From Deltaproteobacteria bacterium (GTDB taxonomy: Bacteria > Desulfobacterota > Dissulfuribacteria > Dissulfuribacterales > QOAL01), in NCBI GenBank assembly GCA_015489315.1, contig WFZZ01000072.1:1-17054 (forward strand): a stretch of DNA of 17,054 nucleotides, in the 5' to 3' direction. A program made the translations under genes and the position numbers. Below the pieces are notes generated by a model. It was not told the origin of the DNA. It ran no database searches and worked only from the letters and a program-made list of their open reading frames with translations. Each line of letters opens with the position of its first letter. The first letter of the stretch is position 1. Positions 4,062 through 10,273 of the stretch are shown here, piece by piece.

Positions 4062-4628
4062 TTACTTCCTAACCCAGTTGCCTGGAGCTTTTTCTATATA
4101 TGTGCCTGAAGGAGCACTTTCCTGCCATTTTTGGGCAAAAATTGCCTGGACCCTAGAAAGTTCTGATAAAGGGATATTAAGGGAACTGGCAACAGCCTTA
4201 TATAGGGCCATCCTGTCACTATTTTCTGCGGTTACAAGCCTTTGGACAGTGGCTTTATCCCTCAAATTAAGGCCAGAGAGGTTTTTTATTACCAAAAGCC
4301 CGTTTGCACCTTCTCCCACAATACCCCTTGACATAAAAGGAGAAAGTAATGGGAAACGATTTTTCATTCTTTCTTTTAACTGCCTGATGGTTGCATTTGA
4401 GACGGTAAGCTCATTTGCCGCATAGACATTTGATTCAAACCCAAGCCAGGAAGTTGGTTTTTCTAGCTTTTTTTCCTTACCCTGGTTCTCAGAGCCCCGA
4501 ACCTCTTTTACAATATCCTCTGCTGCCTTTTGGACCTGGGCAGCGGGGAAATAGATATTCACTGTTACACAGGCAGCCAGAAAAAAAATCACAAACGAAA
4601 CCAGATACCTAATCTCTTTTCTTTTCAT
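4062..4628 (-). CDS. DUF1318 / YdbL-like periplasmic protein in lipoprotein form (possible YnbE-YdbL fusion)
   Basis: The N-terminus MKRKEIRYLVSFVIFFLAAC carries a lipobox (LAAC). The C-terminal half, LKERMKNRFPLL...GIVGEGANGLLVIKN...LVTAENSDRMALYKAVA...IFAQKWQESAPSGTYIEKAPGNWVRK, follows the DUF1318/YdbL pattern (G-E-x-x-G-x-L, aEN.DR.aLY, G.W.RK end). Confidence 0.7.
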   Translation of the reverse strand: MKRKEIRYLVSFVIFFLAACVTVNIYFPAAQVQKAAEDIVKEVRGSENQGKEKKLEKPTSWLGFESNVYAANELTVSNATIRQLKERMKNRFPLLSPFMSRGIVGEGANGLLVIKNLSGLNLRDKATVQRLVTAENSDRMALYKAVASSLNIPLSELSRVQAIFAQKWQESAPSGTYIEKAPGNWVRK

Positions 4629-4632
4629 AACC

Positions 4633-6222
4633 TTAGTAAACCTCCATTTTGCTTTTATCAGACTCTGTTATCCTCTTTAATCTTTCAAGCATGTCTCTGA
4701 AGCTGATTTTTCCATCTGGATTCATATTAACCACATTAACCCCGCCCCAAAAGCCCCTTTTTACAAGATATTCCTTGCCGCCTTCCCTGATTAGACCATG
4801 AAGTTCAAAGACATCATTTTTTAATTTGCAGCTTATACCAATACGCTTATAGGAAAATTCCTTAAAAAACTGACCAATAAGCGACATTGAGCCCTGGCCT
4901 CCACCCAAGATGGATATATTTTCTATTGCCTTTATGCTTATTTTTTTAGGTACATTTGCTGTTTCATCTGTAAGTATCTTAAGAAAAAACTCTTCCGGCT
5001 GACTCCCGCTTATTATCAATCCCTTGATAAAACCATTTATTACACCAGTAATAAGACCAAAGCCCGTATTTGAGGTGATTTCAGAAAGATCAATATGTTT
5101 AAAAAGTATATCACAGCCAATTCTTGGAATTGCTGAAAAGGGATCCAACCATAGATTTTCTATATCAATCTTTCCATTGGCAACTTTGGCTTTTAGAGCC
5201 CCTTCAAATATTACCCGTTCCCCTTTTAGATATGCCTTTTTTATATTGCCTGAAACCTTTATACTTACAGGAAAGTCCTTAAAAACATCCTTTAAATCAA
5301 GTTCATCAAGGTGTAACCCTTCAATTTCAAGGCCCTTTTTTTCAAAAAAAAGCCTTAATTTTTTAAGAAGTAACTCTTTCTCCTTTTTTAAAAATAGGAC
5401 AACTGGCCCTACCTCAAGGTATTTTTTGCACAGACTTATGGGCACTTTATTTGATTTAAAATAGATATTTGCCCCTTCCCTCAAAAGCCTTTTTGGTAAA
5501 AATGGGGAAAGATCAAGCCTTTTCCAGTATATATTTCCATTTTCGCAGAAATCTCCTCCCAAGGGATAGGATAAATTTATGATAAGGCCTTCAAACAGAG
5601 GCCTTTTTCTAAATAAAACTTCCGAAGTCAGGAAAAGGCTGACCCTTTTAGGCATTACCTTGAGATTTATTTTCCCGCTTGGCTCAAGGTCTAATAGAAA
5701 TGGATGGGAATTGGAATAGGCATCCCTCAAAAAAACATTGTACCATGTGTTAAGATTGGCATCTAGTTGAATCTCGCCCTTAAAAAGGCGAGAAAAGCCA
5801 TTTATTTGTTTCCCATTAAAAAATATCTGCATATTATTTGCTCTTAGGTTAAAGGGTCCATGAACCTTAAGATATTTTAAAAGGATATTATCCTTGAGAT
5901 ATGTCCCCTCTGCCTCAAAGGCTCCCCTTAGGGCCTTTAACTCAAAAAACCAGGGATAGATAAAAATTGCGCCATCTTCCCACCCGGCCTTGATTTTAAA
6001 TTCGGTTTGCCCTATCGCCTTCCATCCACTTTCAAACTTCAAAAGGCCTTTTAGGTTTATGCCTTCAAAGGCATGATTTTCATCTCTTTGGCCTGAAAGA
6101 TCTCTCAAATTAAGGTCAATTTGACAATCTAGAAAAGCTGCGAAAGAAGATTGGGAGAAAATAAAGAAAAGGGACTGAATACCCAGGAAAAAAAGTAGAA
6201 AGAAAAGGGGCACTTGCCTCAC
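4633..6222 (-). CDS. Membrane-anchored YdbH-like (AsmA-like / DctA-YdbH domain) envelope protein
   Basis: 529 aa with a GTG start directly abutting the upstream stop (TAG|GTG). It has an N-terminal hydrophobic anchor (VPLFFLLFFLGIQSLFFIF) and a beta-rich repetitive body. The C-terminal segment HIDLSEITSNTGFGLITGVINGFIKGLIISG...GGKEYLVKRGFWGGVNVVNMNP is reminiscent of the YdbH C-terminal domain. Synteny with a DUF1318/YdbL gene 4 nt downstream mirrors E. coli ydbH-ynbE-ydbL. The family assignment is an inference. Confidence 0.5.
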   Translation of the reverse strand: MRQVPLFFLLFFLGIQSLFFIFSQSSFAAFLDCQIDLNLRDLSGQRDENHAFEGINLKGLLKFESGWKAIGQTEFKIKAGWEDGAIFIYPWFFELKALRGAFEAEGTYLKDNILLKYLKVHGPFNLRANNMQIFFNGKQINGFSRLFKGEIQLDANLNTWYNVFLRDAYSNSHPFLLDLEPSGKINLKVMPKRVSLFLTSEVLFRKRPLFEGLIINLSYPLGGDFCENGNIYWKRLDLSPFLPKRLLREGANIYFKSNKVPISLCKKYLEVGPVVLFLKKEKELLLKKLRLFFEKKGLEIEGLHLDELDLKDVFKDFPVSIKVSGNIKKAYLKGERVIFEGALKAKVANGKIDIENLWLDPFSAIPRIGCDILFKHIDLSEITSNTGFGLITGVINGFIKGLIISGSQPEEFFLKILTDETANVPKKISIKAIENISILGGGQGSMSLIGQFFKEFSYKRIGISCKLKNDVFELHGLIREGGKEYLVKRGFWGGVNVVNMNPDGKISFRDMLERLKRITESDKSKMEVY

Positions 6223-7506
6223 CTATTCCTTCCACCTCATTGGAAAAATCAGTCTTACCGTTGTCCCAAGCCCCTTTTGGCTTTCTATATCTATCTTCCC
6301 TTGGTGCTCAAGCATTATATGATGAACCATAATAAGGCCGACCCCTGTACCAGATGGCTTGGTGGTTACAAGTTCCTTGAAAAGACGCCTTTTAATCTTT
6401 TCATCAATTCCAATGCCGTAATCTTTTATCTCAATTGTAGGTCTTCCATTTATCCTGGCGATATTGATCTCTATAGGAGATCCTTCTATAGAGGCATCCA
6501 GGGCATTTTTTAACACATGAAGAAGTGCAACCTTCAGGGTCTTTGGATTTCCGTGAATCTTCAAAGGGCCATCATAATACTTGACCCTTAACCTTATGTT
6601 CTTTTTCTCAAAACCTGGCATCCAAGCCTCCAAGACCTCCTTAACCAGATCATTTAGGTCTAGCTCGACAAAAAACACCTCCTGTTCCTTTACCAGTCCC
6701 TCAAAATCTTTAACTATCTGTTCAAGCTTTTGTGCCTCTTGAAAGATTGCCTGGACCTTGGCCAGAAAAGGCGAATCTTTTGGCATCTTCTTTAAAAGAC
6801 GCCTTGAAAGCCCTCCTATTACAGTTGCCGGGTTTCTTATTTTATCTGCAATCCTTAAGGCAAATTCCACAACAGTCCGCTCATGAACCAGGGATTCCAT
6901 GTCCTTACTTAGTTCCAAAAGTTCTGCATTTACCTTATCAAGCTCTTTATTCTTTATGGTAAGGGTCTTTAAAAGCCTCAGGACCTCTTCGTGCTTTGCC
7001 CGAAGATTTTCCAAATAGGACTCTTCTATATCCTTAAAAAGTCTCTTTTTAATGACATCGTTTTTCTCTTCCAGGTCTTCGCAGGACTGGGTTGCACCAA
7101 AAAAAATAATTCTTATTCGATTTATTTCTCCCTTTTCCCCTTCCTCAAATTCCAAATTGTCAGTGACCTTTTTTGAAGAAGAGATAAAGACCTTGTCACT
7201 AGCTTCATTTTTAATAAATAAAAATGGGGCTTTCTCAGAAGAAAACTCTAACATGATCCCTGATTCAAATTGAGTAAGCCCAGGTATCCTCCTACAGATA
7301 ATAAAGAATGTGGCAAGTCCTCCTTGTGAACGCCTTAAAATTCTCCTTGAAATCTCAGACGAAATAAGGCCAATCTGAGATGACTTTATCTTGGAGAAGC
7401 CAAGGATATCTGAAAGGGCCTTTGCCTTTGTCCTTACCAGGGGTATATCGTTCTCTTTTTTAATGACAAGGCTTAAAACATGTATATTATGATCTATTTT
7501 TTCCAT
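6223..7506 (-). CDS. Histidine-kinase-like ATPase with degenerate RsbT-like N-domain, coiled coil, His-less DHp (H->D) and intact HATPase_c
   Basis: The C-terminus has an N-box (HVLKNALDA), G1 (KDYGIGI), F-box (LFKELVTTK) and G2 (GTGVGL). The H-box position reads FALRIADKIRNPATVIGG, versus the typical aHEIRNPLtaI. N-terminal residues 10-60 (VIKKENDIPLVRTKAKALSDILGF...ISSEISRRIL) resemble the first half of RsbT but lack the Asn and the G-boxes. Confidence 0.8.
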   Translation of the reverse strand: MEKIDHNIHVLSLVIKKENDIPLVRTKAKALSDILGFSKIKSSQIGLISSEISRRILRRSQGGLATFFIICRRIPGLTQFESGIMLEFSSEKAPFLFIKNEASDKVFISSSKKVTDNLEFEEGEKGEINRIRIIFFGATQSCEDLEEKNDVIKKRLFKDIEESYLENLRAKHEEVLRLLKTLTIKNKELDKVNAELLELSKDMESLVHERTVVEFALRIADKIRNPATVIGGLSRRLLKKMPKDSPFLAKVQAIFQEAQKLEQIVKDFEGLVKEQEVFFVELDLNDLVKEVLEAWMPGFEKKNIRLRVKYYDGPLKIHGNPKTLKVALLHVLKNALDASIEGSPIEINIARINGRPTIEIKDYGIGIDEKIKRRLFKELVTTKPSGTGVGLIMVHHIMLEHQGKIDIESQKGLGTTVRLIFPMRWKE

Positions 7507-8588
7507 TGCCAGATAAGTAAGCTTGCATCATCCGAAAACAATTGCTCTTCAGGAACTTCAAATAACATGTTAACAAGAAGAAGTGGTGAAAAATCCATCA
7601 GTTCTTTTGTAAAAATACCTGTCTCTATCCTGGGAATAATCTTTAACCCATCAGAAAAAATTATCCCCATCATATCTTTATGGGCTGAAAATCTTTTTTT
7701 AAAAATACCGTTTTTGACATTTATCTTTCCGATTACGCCTGGATTCCCAACTACAAATTCACCCTTTCCGTTCCAGCTGACAAACTGGGACACGTCACCG
7801 ATTGCATAGATATCAACTAAATTCCTTTCAAAATCAAAATGCACTAGCTGTGCCATCAATCCCCGTGTTCCAAGAAGGGCATTTCCAAGTTCAAATAGAC
7901 AGTCATTTGGGGCAACACTTGGTGAAATCCTTTCAAGAAGACCTTTGGCTTTACATAGAATTTTAGCAGCTTCTTCTCCCTTACCCAAAACATCCATTAG
8001 CATCAATCTCATATATGGATATTCATATACAATTGAAATACCATCACCACTGTATCTTCCAAGTTTATTGGGACATATCAGATAGGAAAATTTTACATGA
8101 GGGGAAATAAAGTCTTCATCTGGAGACCAGAAACAGGCACAAACCACTGTCTTATAAACTGCTTTCTTTTCTAAATTAAAGATATCAGGGCAGGGAACAT
8201 TGCCAAAATGCCCAGAACAAATAGAAAAATCATTACTGAGCCTTTTTACGCAATTAAGACCACTTCTTAGACCTTTCCTCGGAAAATAATTTAAGTCTTT
8301 ACCGTTTAAATCAAAGATACCCGGACCTTCGTCAAGGCTGGAGATACTCATGAAACACCTTTTTTCGTCTATCCTTTGTGAAAATAGCCTTATTATCCCT
8401 CCAGAAGTCTTATGATCAAGATGGTTTTGAGATAGCTCAGAAGTGCAAAGGACAATATCTTCGACCCTATCCTTGTTAAATCCTGCCAAAAGGGCAATTT
8501 CCCTTGAAACTCTCCTTGCAATTAGGACGTGGGACTCTTCATTTATCTCTATCTCTCTAAAATGAGGCTGTATCTTTTCTAAATCCAT
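7494..8588 (-). CDS. RsbT-like GHKL (anti-sigma-type Ser kinase) domain fused to a PP2C/SpoIIE-family phosphatase (RsbX-like)
   Basis: The N-terminal domain reads IEINEESHVLIARRVSREIALLAGF...CTSELSQNHLDH...GGIIRL...SSLDEGPGI...GLRSGLNCVKRLSNDFSI and parallels RsbT. The C-terminal domain has SGDGISI, LMDVLGKGEEAA, GNPGVIGK, IIFSDGL and SDDASLLIW, matching the PP2C/RsbX metal-binding Asp motifs. It overlaps the rsbT stop by 10 nt. Confidence 0.8.
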   Translation of the reverse strand: MDLEKIQPHFREIEINEESHVLIARRVSREIALLAGFNKDRVEDIVLCTSELSQNHLDHKTSGGIIRLFSQRIDEKRCFMSISSLDEGPGIFDLNGKDLNYFPRKGLRSGLNCVKRLSNDFSICSGHFGNVPCPDIFNLEKKAVYKTVVCACFWSPDEDFISPHVKFSYLICPNKLGRYSGDGISIVYEYPYMRLMLMDVLGKGEEAAKILCKAKGLLERISPSVAPNDCLFELGNALLGTRGLMAQLVHFDFERNLVDIYAIGDVSQFVSWNGKGEFVVGNPGVIGKINVKNGIFKKRFSAHKDMMGIIFSDGLKIIPRIETGIFTKELMDFSPLLLVNMLFEVPEEQLFSDDASLLIWQWKK

Positions 8589-8995
8589 TTAATGGCCTCT
8601 ATGTAAGTGCCACCTGTGATATTACTTGCTATCCGCACCTGATCTGCCAGTTTAAAGATGAGATTTAATCCCATGCCAAGTCCACCATCTTCTGAAGAGC
8701 CTGGAAGTAGTGCCTCGTCAAGATCTGAAATGCCCTTTCCCACATCTTCGCCAATTATCTTGACAACAGTCTTTCCTTCTTTGTTTAAAGCCTCTATTGT
8801 CACCCTGCCCCTTTTGCCATGTCTTAGGATATTTTTAGATATTTCATCAAGGATGGTAAGTAGCATGACCTCTTTACTATCCTTTATTTGACCTAAAAGA
8901 TTTAAGATCTTTCTTAGTTCTTTTCTGACAACTGGAATATCTAACTTGGAACGTATCAAAATTTCCTTTTTGACCGCTGGACACCTGGAATCCAT
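8579..8995 (-). CDS. rsbT: Stressosome switch Ser/Thr kinase RsbT
   Basis: MDSRCPAVKKEILIRSKLDIPVVRKELRKIL...ILDEISKNILRHGKRGRVTIEA...IIGEDVGKGISD...GGLGMGLNLIFKLADQVRIAS...GTYIEAIKW aligns end to end with B. subtilis RsbT (about 133 aa). The start was set at the ATG at 8995. The track start at 9106 would overlap rsbS by 92 nt, and that extension has no RsbT counterpart. Confidence 0.88.
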   Translation of the reverse strand: MDSRCPAVKKEILIRSKLDIPVVRKELRKILNLLGQIKDSKEVMLLTILDEISKNILRHGKRGRVTIEALNKEGKTVVKIIGEDVGKGISDLDEALLPGSSEDGGLGMGLNLIFKLADQVRIASNITGGTYIEAIKWI

Positions 8996-9014
8996 GGCCT
9001 TTTTAAAGGCCTTT

Positions 9015-9383
9015 TTATGCGCCTTTAACAATTTTATATCCAAGCCTTTGTAAGGCCTGCTCGGTATCCAGGGCAAAAAGAAGACCCTTTCCAAAAGACA
9101 TCTCAAAACTTTTTAGGGCAGCAATGGCATGGGCCCTCAGCCCAGTAATTACAATCCTTACCTTAAATAGCCTCATGGTATTGGCAAGTCTTTGGATATT
9201 TTCTGCCAAAAAGGTATCTATGACATCAACATCACCAAGATCAACTATAACTGCTTTGCTTTTTCTTTTTTTTACCTGAGAAGACAAGGCCCTTAATAGG
9301 CTCAAGATGCCCTCATCGTCTATCTCCTCCTGGATTGTAACCAGACAAATTTTTCCTAGATGAAAAATAGAATAGGGACGCAT
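9015..9383 (-). CDS. rsbS: Stressosome scaffold STAS protein RsbS
   Basis: A 122-aa single STAS domain (ICLVTIQEEIDDEGILSLL...AVIVDLGDVDVIDTFLAENIQRLANTMRLFKVRIVITGLR). The phospho-acceptor position (B. subtilis Ser59 in VVDSF) is Thr here (VIDTF). Confidence 0.85.
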   Translation of the reverse strand: MRPYSIFHLGKICLVTIQEEIDDEGILSLLRALSSQVKKRKSKAVIVDLGDVDVIDTFLAENIQRLANTMRLFKVRIVITGLRAHAIAALKSFEMSFGKGLLFALDTEQALQRLGYKIVKGA

Positions 9384-9394
9384 TATAAAGATAC

Positions 9395-10267
9395 TTATTG
9401 TTCTTCCATAAACACCGTGCTTTCCCTGTGCCTTTTTTGAAGCTTCATTAGCTTTTGGATCGCATAATGAAGGCCATCTGCCATTCGGCTTCGAACATTT
9501 ATTGTCCCAAGGTCAACTCCAAGATGTGCCATTGTAAGGGCAATTCTTGATGAAATCCCTGTAAGTATCGCCTCACTTCCCATAAGCCTTACTGCATCTA
9601 CTGTTTGAAGAAGATGATTGGCTACAGCAGTATCCACGTTTGGAACACCTGTTATATCAATTATCACAAAGGGGGCCCTTGTATGTTCAATAGTTACCAA
9701 GAGCCTCTCCATGGCCGACTGGGCCCTGTGGCTATCAAGGGTTCCAACCAAAGGTAGCGCCAAAACCCCGTCCCATACTTCTATCACTGGTGTGGAAAGC
9801 TCAAGTATCTCTTCCTGAAGATGCCTTATGTCTTCGTCACGCTTTTTCAAAAGCTCCTCTTGCTGTTTGACAATAAGGCGCTCCTTTTCAAGCCTGTCTG
9901 AAATGTCAATAAAATGCTCAACACAGCCAATAACTTCCCCTTTTAGGTTTTTTAGAGGCCTGCTGGCAAACTCAATGGGAATTTCCTTGTCTCCTACCTT
10001 TAAGGTGGTCTGGCCTTGATTGACACTGTTTTGGCTAGTGGCAACCTTGCATGTGCAATTTTCTGTCTGACACATGGGGGTGTTAAATATCTCATAACAC
10101 TTTCTGTCAAAACAATCTCCTGGGGTCCTTCCAACCATTTCTGCCCCCGCCTTATTGATAATCAGAATATTATGCTCAAGGTCTGTGACAAAGATACCGG
10201 AAGGAACCGCATTGATTATTTCAAATAAAAAACCTTCGTCTCCTTGATAATCCTTGAGATTGTTCAT
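9395..10267 (-). CDS. rsbR: RsbR-like stressosome sensor: N-terminal Cys-rich PAS domain, coiled-coil linker, C-terminal STAS
   Basis: The C-terminus reads STPVIEVWDGVLALPLVGTLDSHRAQ...VIIDITGVPNVDTAVANHLLQTVDAVRLMGSEAILTGISSRIA. This closely matches the RsbRA STAS domain (IDITGVPVVDTMVAHH), with both phospho-Thr positions conserved. The N-terminus is a PAS fold (FEIINAVPSGIFVTDLEHNILIINKAGAEMVG...IGCVEHFIDISD). The second ATG (10267) is preferred because AAGGAG directly abuts the first ATG at 10273. Confidence 0.88.
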   Translation of the reverse strand: MNNLKDYQGDEGFLFEIINAVPSGIFVTDLEHNILIINKAGAEMVGRTPGDCFDRKCYEIFNTPMCQTENCTCKVATSQNSVNQGQTTLKVGDKEIPIEFASRPLKNLKGEVIGCVEHFIDISDRLEKERLIVKQQEELLKKRDEDIRHLQEEILELSTPVIEVWDGVLALPLVGTLDSHRAQSAMERLLVTIEHTRAPFVIIDITGVPNVDTAVANHLLQTVDAVRLMGSEAILTGISSRIALTMAHLGVDLGTINVRSRMADGLHYAIQKLMKLQKRHRESTVFMEEQ

Positions 10268-10273
10268 GGCCAT

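Follow-up and report, generated by a model that had tools for sequence, protein, structure and literature searches.

The 17,054-nucleotide window analysed here (contig WFZZ01000072.1 of the deltaproteobacterial assembly GCA_015489315.1) carries on its minus strand a stressosome-type operon, and we focused on the last of its signalling genes, which encodes the histidine-kinase-like protein P0001. In P0001, the position of the phospho-acceptor His is occupied by an Asp, D221; this Asp state is ancient, fixed, and changed together with the neighbouring +1 residue. As the His and the acidic +1 residue are both missing family-wide, the H-box of P0001 cannot support canonical His autophosphorylation, which the initial annotation of the window had already judged improbable. 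We tentatively propose that P0001 could be a transmitter docked on the stressosome and devoid of kinase activity, which would take the phosphate off a response regulator encoded elsewhere or sequester this regulator. Stressosome outputs outside Firmicutes are poorly understood, and P0001 suggests that a stressosome might directly influence whether a response regulator is phosphorylated.

An Aspartate at the Phospho-Acceptor Position

Translation of positions 6223-7506(-) contains VHERTVVEFALRIADKIRNPATVIGGLSRR around the H-box, the wider H-box stretch of P0001 being LVHERTVVEFALRIADKIRNPATVIGGLSRR; the positions first given for the H-box (6811-6864) and for the GAT codon (6846..6844) proved exact on re-translation. 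When P0001 is aligned by phmmer with solved kinases, the phospho-acceptor pair H-E of ThkA (3a0r, AHEIRNP), ZraS (9jfj), and KinB (3d36) falls on D221-K222, which agrees with the replacement of H-E by D-K that had been read from the sequence at the outset. The acidic +1 residue required for kinase activity is, thus, not present in P0001, where K222 stands instead. The Pfam HisKA model matches P0001 below threshold (23.1 bits, for a cut-off of 26.9 bits), and P0001 is among the three weakest of the 45 HisKA matches in the genome, all three of which lie under the cut-off; it is also the only Asp-type module of this genome among the kinase-like modules matched by the family profile.

The family alignment comprises 57 full-length homologues sharing 31-97% identity; one has to keep in mind that the compared genomes are related, so that counts across them are not independent. 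Alignment position 221 is Asp in 55 of the 57 sequences and His in the other two, and the orthologue that is 97% identical to P0001 also reads ADKIRNP. The initial annotation had asked whether the Asp might be a strain-specific change or a sequencing error, a candidate explanation that this orthologue comparison rules out. The two His-bearing homologues, P0051 and P0056, read AHEIRNP and have, therefore, both the His and the Glu; no orthologue of either was found in a 401-genome sample of the phylum, and their contigs are not among the matches of the metagenome scan. At position 222 (+1), the family has K (23 sequences), R (20), Q (12), or E (2), the latter being confined to the two His-bearing members. 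A220, N225, P226, and G231 are invariant among the 57 homologues; N225 stands at +4, where a Thr or Asn is a feature of HisKA phosphatases. No relative has an internal stop in this frame, which is open throughout, and the source annotations of the homologues are either “sensor histidine kinase” or “hypothetical protein”.

A Large Clade of Asp-Type Modules

A profile search over 1.84 billion representatives returned first about 20 full-length family clusters, and then many proteins matching only the part made of the dimerisation and histidine phosphotransfer (DHp) and the catalytic and ATP-binding (CA) domains. We inspected the H-box of the best 150 proteins, among which 64 of the 168 matches covering the H-box carry Asp in the pattern xxVAD[KR]xRNPxxVIG. 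The input domains identified by Pfam ahead of these Asp-type modules are REC (P0146, P0153), REC-PAS (P0156), RsbU_N (P0152), PAS (P0137), and a periplasmic binding domain (P0159); in P0140, the module forms the C-terminus of a two-receiver full hybrid kinase. Since this large clade carries many other input domains, the Asp-type H-box is not peculiar to stressosomes, a point that the initial annotation had missed.

Scanning one genome per species with a strict pattern gave 201 stretches, 185 of which were confirmed; these loci lie mostly in metagenome-assembled genomes (MAGs) of Nitrospirota/Thermodesulfovibrionia, with several copies per genome, and next to most Asp-type genes there is no regulator gene. 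We found no RsbU_N-fused Asp-type protein in five complete or large Nitrospirota genomes. A recurrent arrangement was seen in Nitrospirota MAGs (for example, at loci L063, L066, L071, L091, and L105), where a hybrid kinase gene (HisKA-HATPase-REC) is directly followed by a gene of about 375 codons for a REC-DHp(Asp)-CA protein; in other genomes (loci L082, L084, L113, and L114), the hybrid kinase and the REC-DHp(Asp)-CA parts are fused in a single protein of 1080-1692 amino acids.

We then placed 183 DHp-CA modules in a FastTree phylogeny (LG+gamma). All of the D-[RKQNS] modules (111/111) fall in one clade that contains no His, and in which the +1 residue is R (51), K (40), Q (15), N (3), or S (2) and never E or D; it is because the clade is uniformly Asp and its +1 never acidic that we regard the Asp as old and as having changed in step with its neighbour. 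In a 19-sequence sample of this wider clade, Pro at +5 is invariant and Asn at +4 is conserved in at least 90% of the sequences. Within the Asp clade, 68 modules make up the stressosome-linked family as a subclade (support 0.996), and the sister group is made of 19 His-type modules (support 0.978), including P0051, P0056, and the C44-type paralogues described further below. The Asp itself is under strong constraint.

A separate group of four modules with D-G or D-C (support 0.99) shows a second, independent His-to-Asp change; its members are P0197, P0199, P0204, and P0206, which read ADGIRNP or ADCIRNP. Related groups (P0149, P0150, P0225, and P0228) have the His without an acidic +1 residue (AHGIRNP, AHQ, AHR, AHS). 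Taken together, these non-acidic +1 His groups and the second Asp group indicate that the H-E pair has been relaxed more than once in this part of the HisKA family.

Domain Architecture of P0001

From N- to C-terminus, P0001 is predicted to contain an RsbW/RsbT-like pseudokinase N-domain, a long coiled coil of the signalling helix (S-helix) type, the DHp domain with its Asp, and the CA domain. The AlphaFold2 (AF2) model of the full protein, with a mean predicted local distance difference test score (pLDDT) of 79, has an alpha/beta N-domain (residues 1-136), a continuous helix (160-240), DHp helix 2, and the CA domain. The DHp hairpin and the alpha/beta CA domain have the fold of sensor kinases, with ZraS as the best Foldseek match (E 4.5e-16); DivL (4q20) and RetS are also among the fold matches.

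The boxes of the CA domain are intact, as had been noticed from the sequence: the N-box (H330..N334), the G1 box (D362-x-G364-x-G366), F376 of the F box, and the G2 box (G386-x-G388-x-G390-L391). This domain scores 69 bits with Pfam HATPase_c versus 21.6 bits with HATPase_c_2. The same boxes are intact in every family member down to about 38% identity. Beyond this, a distant subclade, P0052-P0063 (Desulfobulbaceae-like metagenome proteins), has decayed N, G1, and G2 boxes and has kept ADxxRNP, the ERT signature, and the KHEE motif; the DHp domain and the coiled coil are, therefore, the conserved core.

In the S-helix, N193 is invariant among the 57 homologues, and E209, R210, and T211 are each conserved in at least 90% of them; ERT is the signature of the signalling helix (PMC1592074). 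H208, which immediately precedes this signature (VHERT), is kept in 34 of the 57 sequences. The beginning of the coiled coil is marked by a K171-H172-E173-E174 motif, in the context LRAKHEEV, which the wider Asp-type clade does not have; the nearest PAS-linked relatives show a Q-H pair at its place. H172 lies 49 residues N-terminal of D221, that is, about 73 Å away on one continuous helix in the AF2 model.

The N-domain was also modelled separately with AF2 from 19 orthologues (pLDDT 92.7). Its Foldseek matches listed at E <= 1e-3 are all SpoIIAB, RsbW, or UsfX (E 1.5e-5, template modelling score 0.57-0.67), and several of the matching PDB chains were solved in complex with STAS antagonists; in addition, the family profile of the N-domain matches the RsbT of the window with an hhalign probability of 77% (E 2e-5). 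The N-box Asn site is an Arg (E51-x-x-R54) that is invariant in the 19 orthologues, and the G1 and G2 boxes are not recognisable; it is on these two grounds that the modelled domain is called an RsbT/RsbW-like pseudokinase domain, in line with the degenerate RsbT-like N-domain of the initial annotation. We dropped the Pfam HATPase_c_2 matches of the homologues as evidence for the N-domain, as they are located on the C-terminal CA domain, so that the identity of the N-domain rests on fold and profile comparison; an ESM Atlas look-up returned unnamed clusters only. Given this RsbT/RsbW-type fold, docking on the STAS domains of a stressosome is plausible, and the N-domain is most plausibly a STAS-binding module.

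The Stressosome Operon and Its Neighbours

The genes of the operon follow one another on the minus strand in the order PAS-STAS (RsbR-like), STAS (RsbS-like), RsbT-like, RsbT-like fusion, P0001, YdbH-like, and DUF1318, and they overlap or abut (Table 1); the last 13 nucleotides of the fusion gene are shared with the beginning of the Asp-type gene. The true start of the RsbT-like gene is probably further downstream than that of the listed open reading frame (ORF), near 8995. The C-terminal half of the fusion protein, first described as PP2C-like, had no Pfam match and no PDB-chain sequence match at E <= 1.

Table 1. Features of the window discussed in the text, with their coordinates, strand, and supporting evidence.
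Feature	Position	Strand	Evidence or remark
Asp-type histidine-kinase-like gene (protein P0001)	6223..7506	-	427 amino acids; AF2 mean pLDDT 79
N-domain, residues 1-136, SpoIIAB/RsbW/RsbT fold; probable STAS-binding module	7099..7506	-	AF2, Foldseek, hhalign
S-helix coiled coil, residues 160-213, part of helix 160-240 joining the N-domain to DHp	6868..7029	-	AF2, conservation
K171-H172-E173-E174 motif, start of the long coiled coil	6985..6996	-	K171, H172, and E174 invariant (57/57)
H-box region F215-G232, FALRIADKIRNPATVIGG, on DHp helix 1	6811..6864	-	Translation
Codon GAT, D221 (phospho-acceptor His position)	6844..6846	-	phmmer alignment, family alignment
N225-P226, counterparts of CrdS N375/P376	6829..6834	-	Each invariant (57/57)
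DHp helix 2, residues 248-276	6679..6765	-	AF2 model
CA domain, residues 280-427	6226..6669	-	Pfam HATPase_c 5e-19, motif table
RsbR-like PAS-STAS sensor	9395..10273	-	Pfam PAS_4 6.7e-13, STAS 1.1e-14
RsbS-like single-STAS protein	9015..9383	-	Pfam STAS 1.8e-8
RsbT-like serine kinase	8579..9106 (listed ORF)	-	Pfam HATPase_c_2 5e-7, HATPase_c 1.3e-6
RsbT-like N-domain fusion gene	7494..8588	-	Pfam HATPase_c_2 at residues 20-123, below cut-off
YdbH-like and DUF1318 genes	4062-6222	-	Abut the Asp-type gene at 6222/6223

In relatives, the fusion gene is kept beside the Asp-type gene, and both rsbR and rsbS are found upstream of the orthologue at 18 of the 20 loci compared; one of the other two loci ends at a contig edge, and the last one, L027, has no rsbR or rsbS within 9 kb. 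With the RsbT of the window as query, a separate RsbT gene was not detected in L030, L033, L035, L036, and L037, where its presence is uncertain; at four of these five loci the fusion gene directly follows rsbS, and in L035 the fusion gene was not detected either. The YdbH-like/DUF1318 pair follows the Asp-type gene only within the taxonomic family of the window, and not in the other families of the order; these two genes are a later addition to the unit.

PilS/PilR-Like Genes and the C44 Paralogue

No regulator gene stands beside the Asp-type gene in the operons of the relatives, save for a PilR-like gene upstream of rsbR in seven genomes: this sigma54-type response regulator gene and a kinase gene lie directly upstream of rsbR in these genomes, which belong to seven families, that of the window included (L028, L030, L031, L033, L036, and L037 are among the loci with this pair). 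The clear orthologues of the pair in the genome of the window are found on a separate contig, C192 (L121:1609-4658); the regulator has REC, Sigma54_activat, and HTH_8 domains and the kinase 6TM_PilS, PAS, HisKA, and HATPase_c domains, and the two are a PilS/PilR-like pair. An ANTAR response regulator gene lies upstream of the C192 pair, and GGDEF and HDOD genes are nearby. In the window, the stressosome operon is divergent from an MSHA-like pilus locus, an adjacency found in just three genomes of the genus; no sigma54 promoter was found before the neighbouring pilin gene, the window containing three matches versus 1.9 expected by chance, none of which is intergenic.

Within the genome, P0001 has as its closest paralogue a membrane-anchored protein of 364 amino acids encoded on contig C44 (L122:2846-3940, + strand). 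It has an S-helix like that of P0001 and an intact AHEIRNP, and its CA domain is devoid of N, G1, and G2 boxes, which makes it the mirror image of the P0001 defect, but neither gene depends on the other for its occurrence. This decay of the C44-type CA domain is confined to the genus of the window, where the +1 residue drifts as well (E, N, R, H), the other genera keeping HE and all boxes. The idea that the C44 paralogue and P0001 form a complementary split kinase is unsupported: the CA decay is confined to one genus, it occurs in genomes without an Asp-type gene, and six genomes with an Asp-type gene have no C44-type match.

Proposed Mechanism and Alternatives

For comparison, the H-box of CrdS reads LAHEIKNPL. 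CrdS H371A keeps most of its phosphatase activity, CrdA~P then lasting with a half-life of 2.6 min, compared with 0.7 min with wild-type CrdS and 53 min without CrdS; substitutions of the +1 residue (E372A/D/G/Q) abolish kinase activity without any loss of phosphatase activity, which is abolished by N375A and greatly lowered by P376A (PMC3510030). The phosphatase role of a Thr or Asn at +4 has been defined in CrdS, HK853, and RcsC of P. aeruginosa PA14 (PMC3510030, PMC3842833), the latter being a phosphatase-only sensor (PMC3842833). By analogy with CrdS, the retained N225 and P226 of P0001, whose significance the initial annotation overlooked, would be the residues needed for phosphatase activity in the same H-box class. 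We lean towards a phosphatase because the residues that serve the kinase only (the His and the +1 Glu) are gone, while the phosphatase residues of CrdS are kept.

P0001 would then be the output of the stressosome module, having lost the chemistry of autokinase and phosphotransfer and kept the DHp surface and a nucleotide-binding CA domain. The N-domain, whose fold is computed, would dock on the STAS domain of RsbS or RsbR; the state of this contact would be relayed to the DHp domain through the coiled coil of about 80 residues, as the architecture suggests; and the DHp domain, with its D221-x-x-x-N225-P226, would bind a response regulator encoded at a distance and act as a dedicated phospho-Asp phosphatase or, at least, sequester this regulator. 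The attacking water would be positioned by N225, with D221 in the supporting role that normally falls to the His, the two forming an acid and amide pair with the spacing seen in CheZ and NarX, and the CA domain would contribute its bound nucleotide as a cofactor. A candidate target, which the adjoining genes of seven relatives hint at, may be the PilR-like sigma54 activator. More generally, Asp-type DHp-CA modules may provide the output of proteins whose sensor domains are REC, PAS, RsbU_N, or periplasmic ones.

Several observations weigh against this proposal. As first noted, no response regulator gene is present in the window: the contig, whose extent equals that of the window, encodes no REC domain, although there are 59 REC matches in the genome. 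PilS-like genes are found in 41 of 41 relatives, with or without an Asp-type gene, so that there is no phyletic signal for PilS/PilR and their phyletic coupling with the Asp-type gene is uninformative; the PilS/PilR link is one of synteny in related, non-independent genomes and does not hold in the genus of the window, and in its DHp helix-1 residues P0001 is closer to the C44 paralogue than to PilS. Without a phyletic signal, with a pilus adjacency limited to three genomes, and without a sigma54 promoter, the pilus and PilR link is a lead and not a result. The node uniting the whole Asp clade has a Shimodaira-Hasegawa-like support of only 0.5. The invariant K171-H172-x-E174 is not accounted for by the proposed mechanism. 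Finally, the strict retention of the ATP-binding boxes over most of the clade exceeds the obvious need of a phosphatase cofactor and could point to a real phosphotransfer.

P0001 might instead be a pseudokinase of the DivL/RetS type, whose DHp domain, alone or together with the CA domain, binds a response regulator or forms a heterodimer with a canonical kinase (a PilS-like one, for example) and modulates this partner without any catalysis, the nucleotide being structural only. We consider this unlikely, even though there are precedents in DivL, which has a Tyr at the His position (PMC4211667), and in RetS, both of which are recovered by the fold search, and even though a PilS-like kinase of the same H-box class is adjacent in the seven relatives and the loss of N, G1, and G2 boxes in P0052-P0063, with ADxxRNP and KHEE retained, implies that ATP binding is dispensable at least there. 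Indeed, a site without function would be expected to vary, as is the case in PsmA, whereas Asp, Asn at +4, and Pro at +5 are fixed here at only about 35% identity, and most of the clade retains its ATP-binding boxes.

Another alternative is a true kinase with a new acceptor, in which the CA domain would phosphorylate D221 itself (as an acyl-phosphate) or would transfer the phosphate directly to a docked receiver, making P0001 a histidine-free transmitter. In favour of it, the Asp does not vary; at +1, an acidic residue gives way to Lys, Arg, or Gln along with the His-to-Asp change, as would suit a site that can do without a general base and might stabilise an acyl-phosphate; most members retain every ATP-binding box; and Asp-type modules bear the full range of ordinary sensor inputs, as working kinases do. 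The side chain of Asp is, however, shorter than that of His, which renders the geometry of an in-line attack doubtful, the shortage of adjacent regulator genes noted above holds for most Asp-type genes, and one subclade without ATP binding still keeps the Asp. Our literature search turned up no precedent, and we know of none. We, thus, rate such a kinase as quite improbable.

We give little credence to a protein Ser/Thr kinase, in which the CA domain would phosphorylate a Ser or Thr of a partner (a STAS protein, for example) or of P0001 itself. Plant phytochromes and subfamily-2 ethylene receptors phosphorylate Ser/Thr in this manner, the ATP-binding boxes of P0001 are intact, and STAS domains that are phosphorylated on Ser/Thr are at the core of the operon; RsbT already fills that role in the operon, however, and the CA domain is, by its Pfam scores, of the HisKA-partner rather than of the RsbW type. 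No conserved Ser/Thr candidate was identified, and such an activity would leave the invariant Asp, Asn, and Pro of the DHp domain unexplained. For the Ser/Thr kinase or ATP-dependent scaffold suggested in the initial annotation, we found no specific support.

Canonical chemistry on another His, either H172 of KHEE or H208 of VHERT, deserves very little credence indeed. H172 is invariant, is followed by acidic residues in an H-box-like manner, and recalls the misplaced acceptor His reported for the atypical kinase Lpl0330 (bioRxiv 10.64898/2026.02.27.708494); yet its distance from D221 along the helix puts it out of reach of the CA domain, and KHEE is not found in the wider Asp-type clade. H208, which had been named at the outset as a possible acceptor, is rejected, as it is conserved in little more than half of the homologues (34/57) and belongs to the ERT signature of the S-helix. 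As for an artefact (sequencing error, strain-specific mutation, or decaying pseudogene), GAT is a single base from CAT, and its probability is nonetheless negligible with an Asp shared, at identities as low as 31%, by 55 of 57 homologues, and by 111 of 111 clade members, in open frames.

What is at stake goes beyond P0001, as a large clade of proteins named “sensor histidine kinase” has an invariant Asp in place of the phosphorylated His while keeping ATP-binding boxes and the usual inputs. The clade would represent either natural dedicated sensor phosphatases, a class mainly known from engineered or genetically inferred cases, or an undescribed phosphotransfer, and either outcome would change gene annotation and the reading of signalling networks in these phyla. 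Were the Asp-acceptor or direct-transfer kinase to prove true, there would be a histidine-free branch of two-component signalling, with several hundred sensor proteins of Nitrospirota and Thermodesulfobacteriota, P0001 included.

Comparison with Known Systems

Kinase-like proteins without the His (DivL, PsmA), phosphatase-only sensors, and stressosome-coupled two-component proteins (Vibrio; PMC9237108) are already known. In the literature searched, we found no published description of a clade of HisKA proteins whose acceptor site is invariably Asp, nor of a stressosome output of the P0001 kind.

The closest parallel for the stressosome link is in Vibrio vulnificus, where an RsbR-RsbS-RsbT module is followed by a kinase-like protein in place of a sigma-factor cascade, VvD1 being described as a two-component protein and downstream sensor kinase (PMC9237108). 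VvD1/VvD2 and the RsbU_N-bearing proteins downstream of RsbX resemble P0001 in coupling a stressosome to a two-component-like output; P0001, for its part, has no His, carries its own RsbT/RsbW-like domain for probable docking rather than RsbU_N or PAS, and has no adjacent receiver or GGDEF partner.

For the site itself, a close parallel is CrdS of Myxococcus xanthus, whose NtrB-type H-box belongs to the same class as that of P0001 (xAHEIxNPL) and whose phosphatase Asn at +4 and Pro at +5 are invariant in the P0001 family. CrdS and RcsC keep the His, and their kinase-dead forms are laboratory-made or genetically inferred, whereas P0001 is naturally and invariantly Asp with a basic or amide +1 residue, has no adjacent regulator gene, and takes its input from a stressosome-type module. 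An acid and an amide on one helix face are also found in other phosphatases, namely, CheZ and NarX (DxxxQ) and CheX (ExxN) (PMC3510030); D221-x-x-x-N225 shares the i/i+4 spacing of DxxxQ, but it has Asn instead of Gln and sits on a HisKA scaffold instead of a HisKA_3 or CheZ one, so that this likeness is a lead at the level of the motif.

DivL of Caulobacter shares with P0001 a natural and conserved replacement of the His, its DHp-CA part being kept as a binding and sensing surface for a response regulator. It differs in its Tyr, in its membrane-anchored multi-PAS architecture, and in its place in CckA/DivK cell-cycle control, with no stressosome link and no wide clade of multiple architectures. 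PsmA of Streptomyces is, like P0001, a histidine-kinase-like protein whose H-box His is missing, and it shows no autokinase activity; in this scaffold pseudokinase, the His site holds E, D, Q, V, or Y depending on the species, and there is no phosphatase motif left (PMC12963549). In the P0001 clade, by contrast, the Asp is fixed, as are Asn at +4 and Pro at +5 in the family, and it is this difference from PsmA that argues for a working site in the P0001 family.

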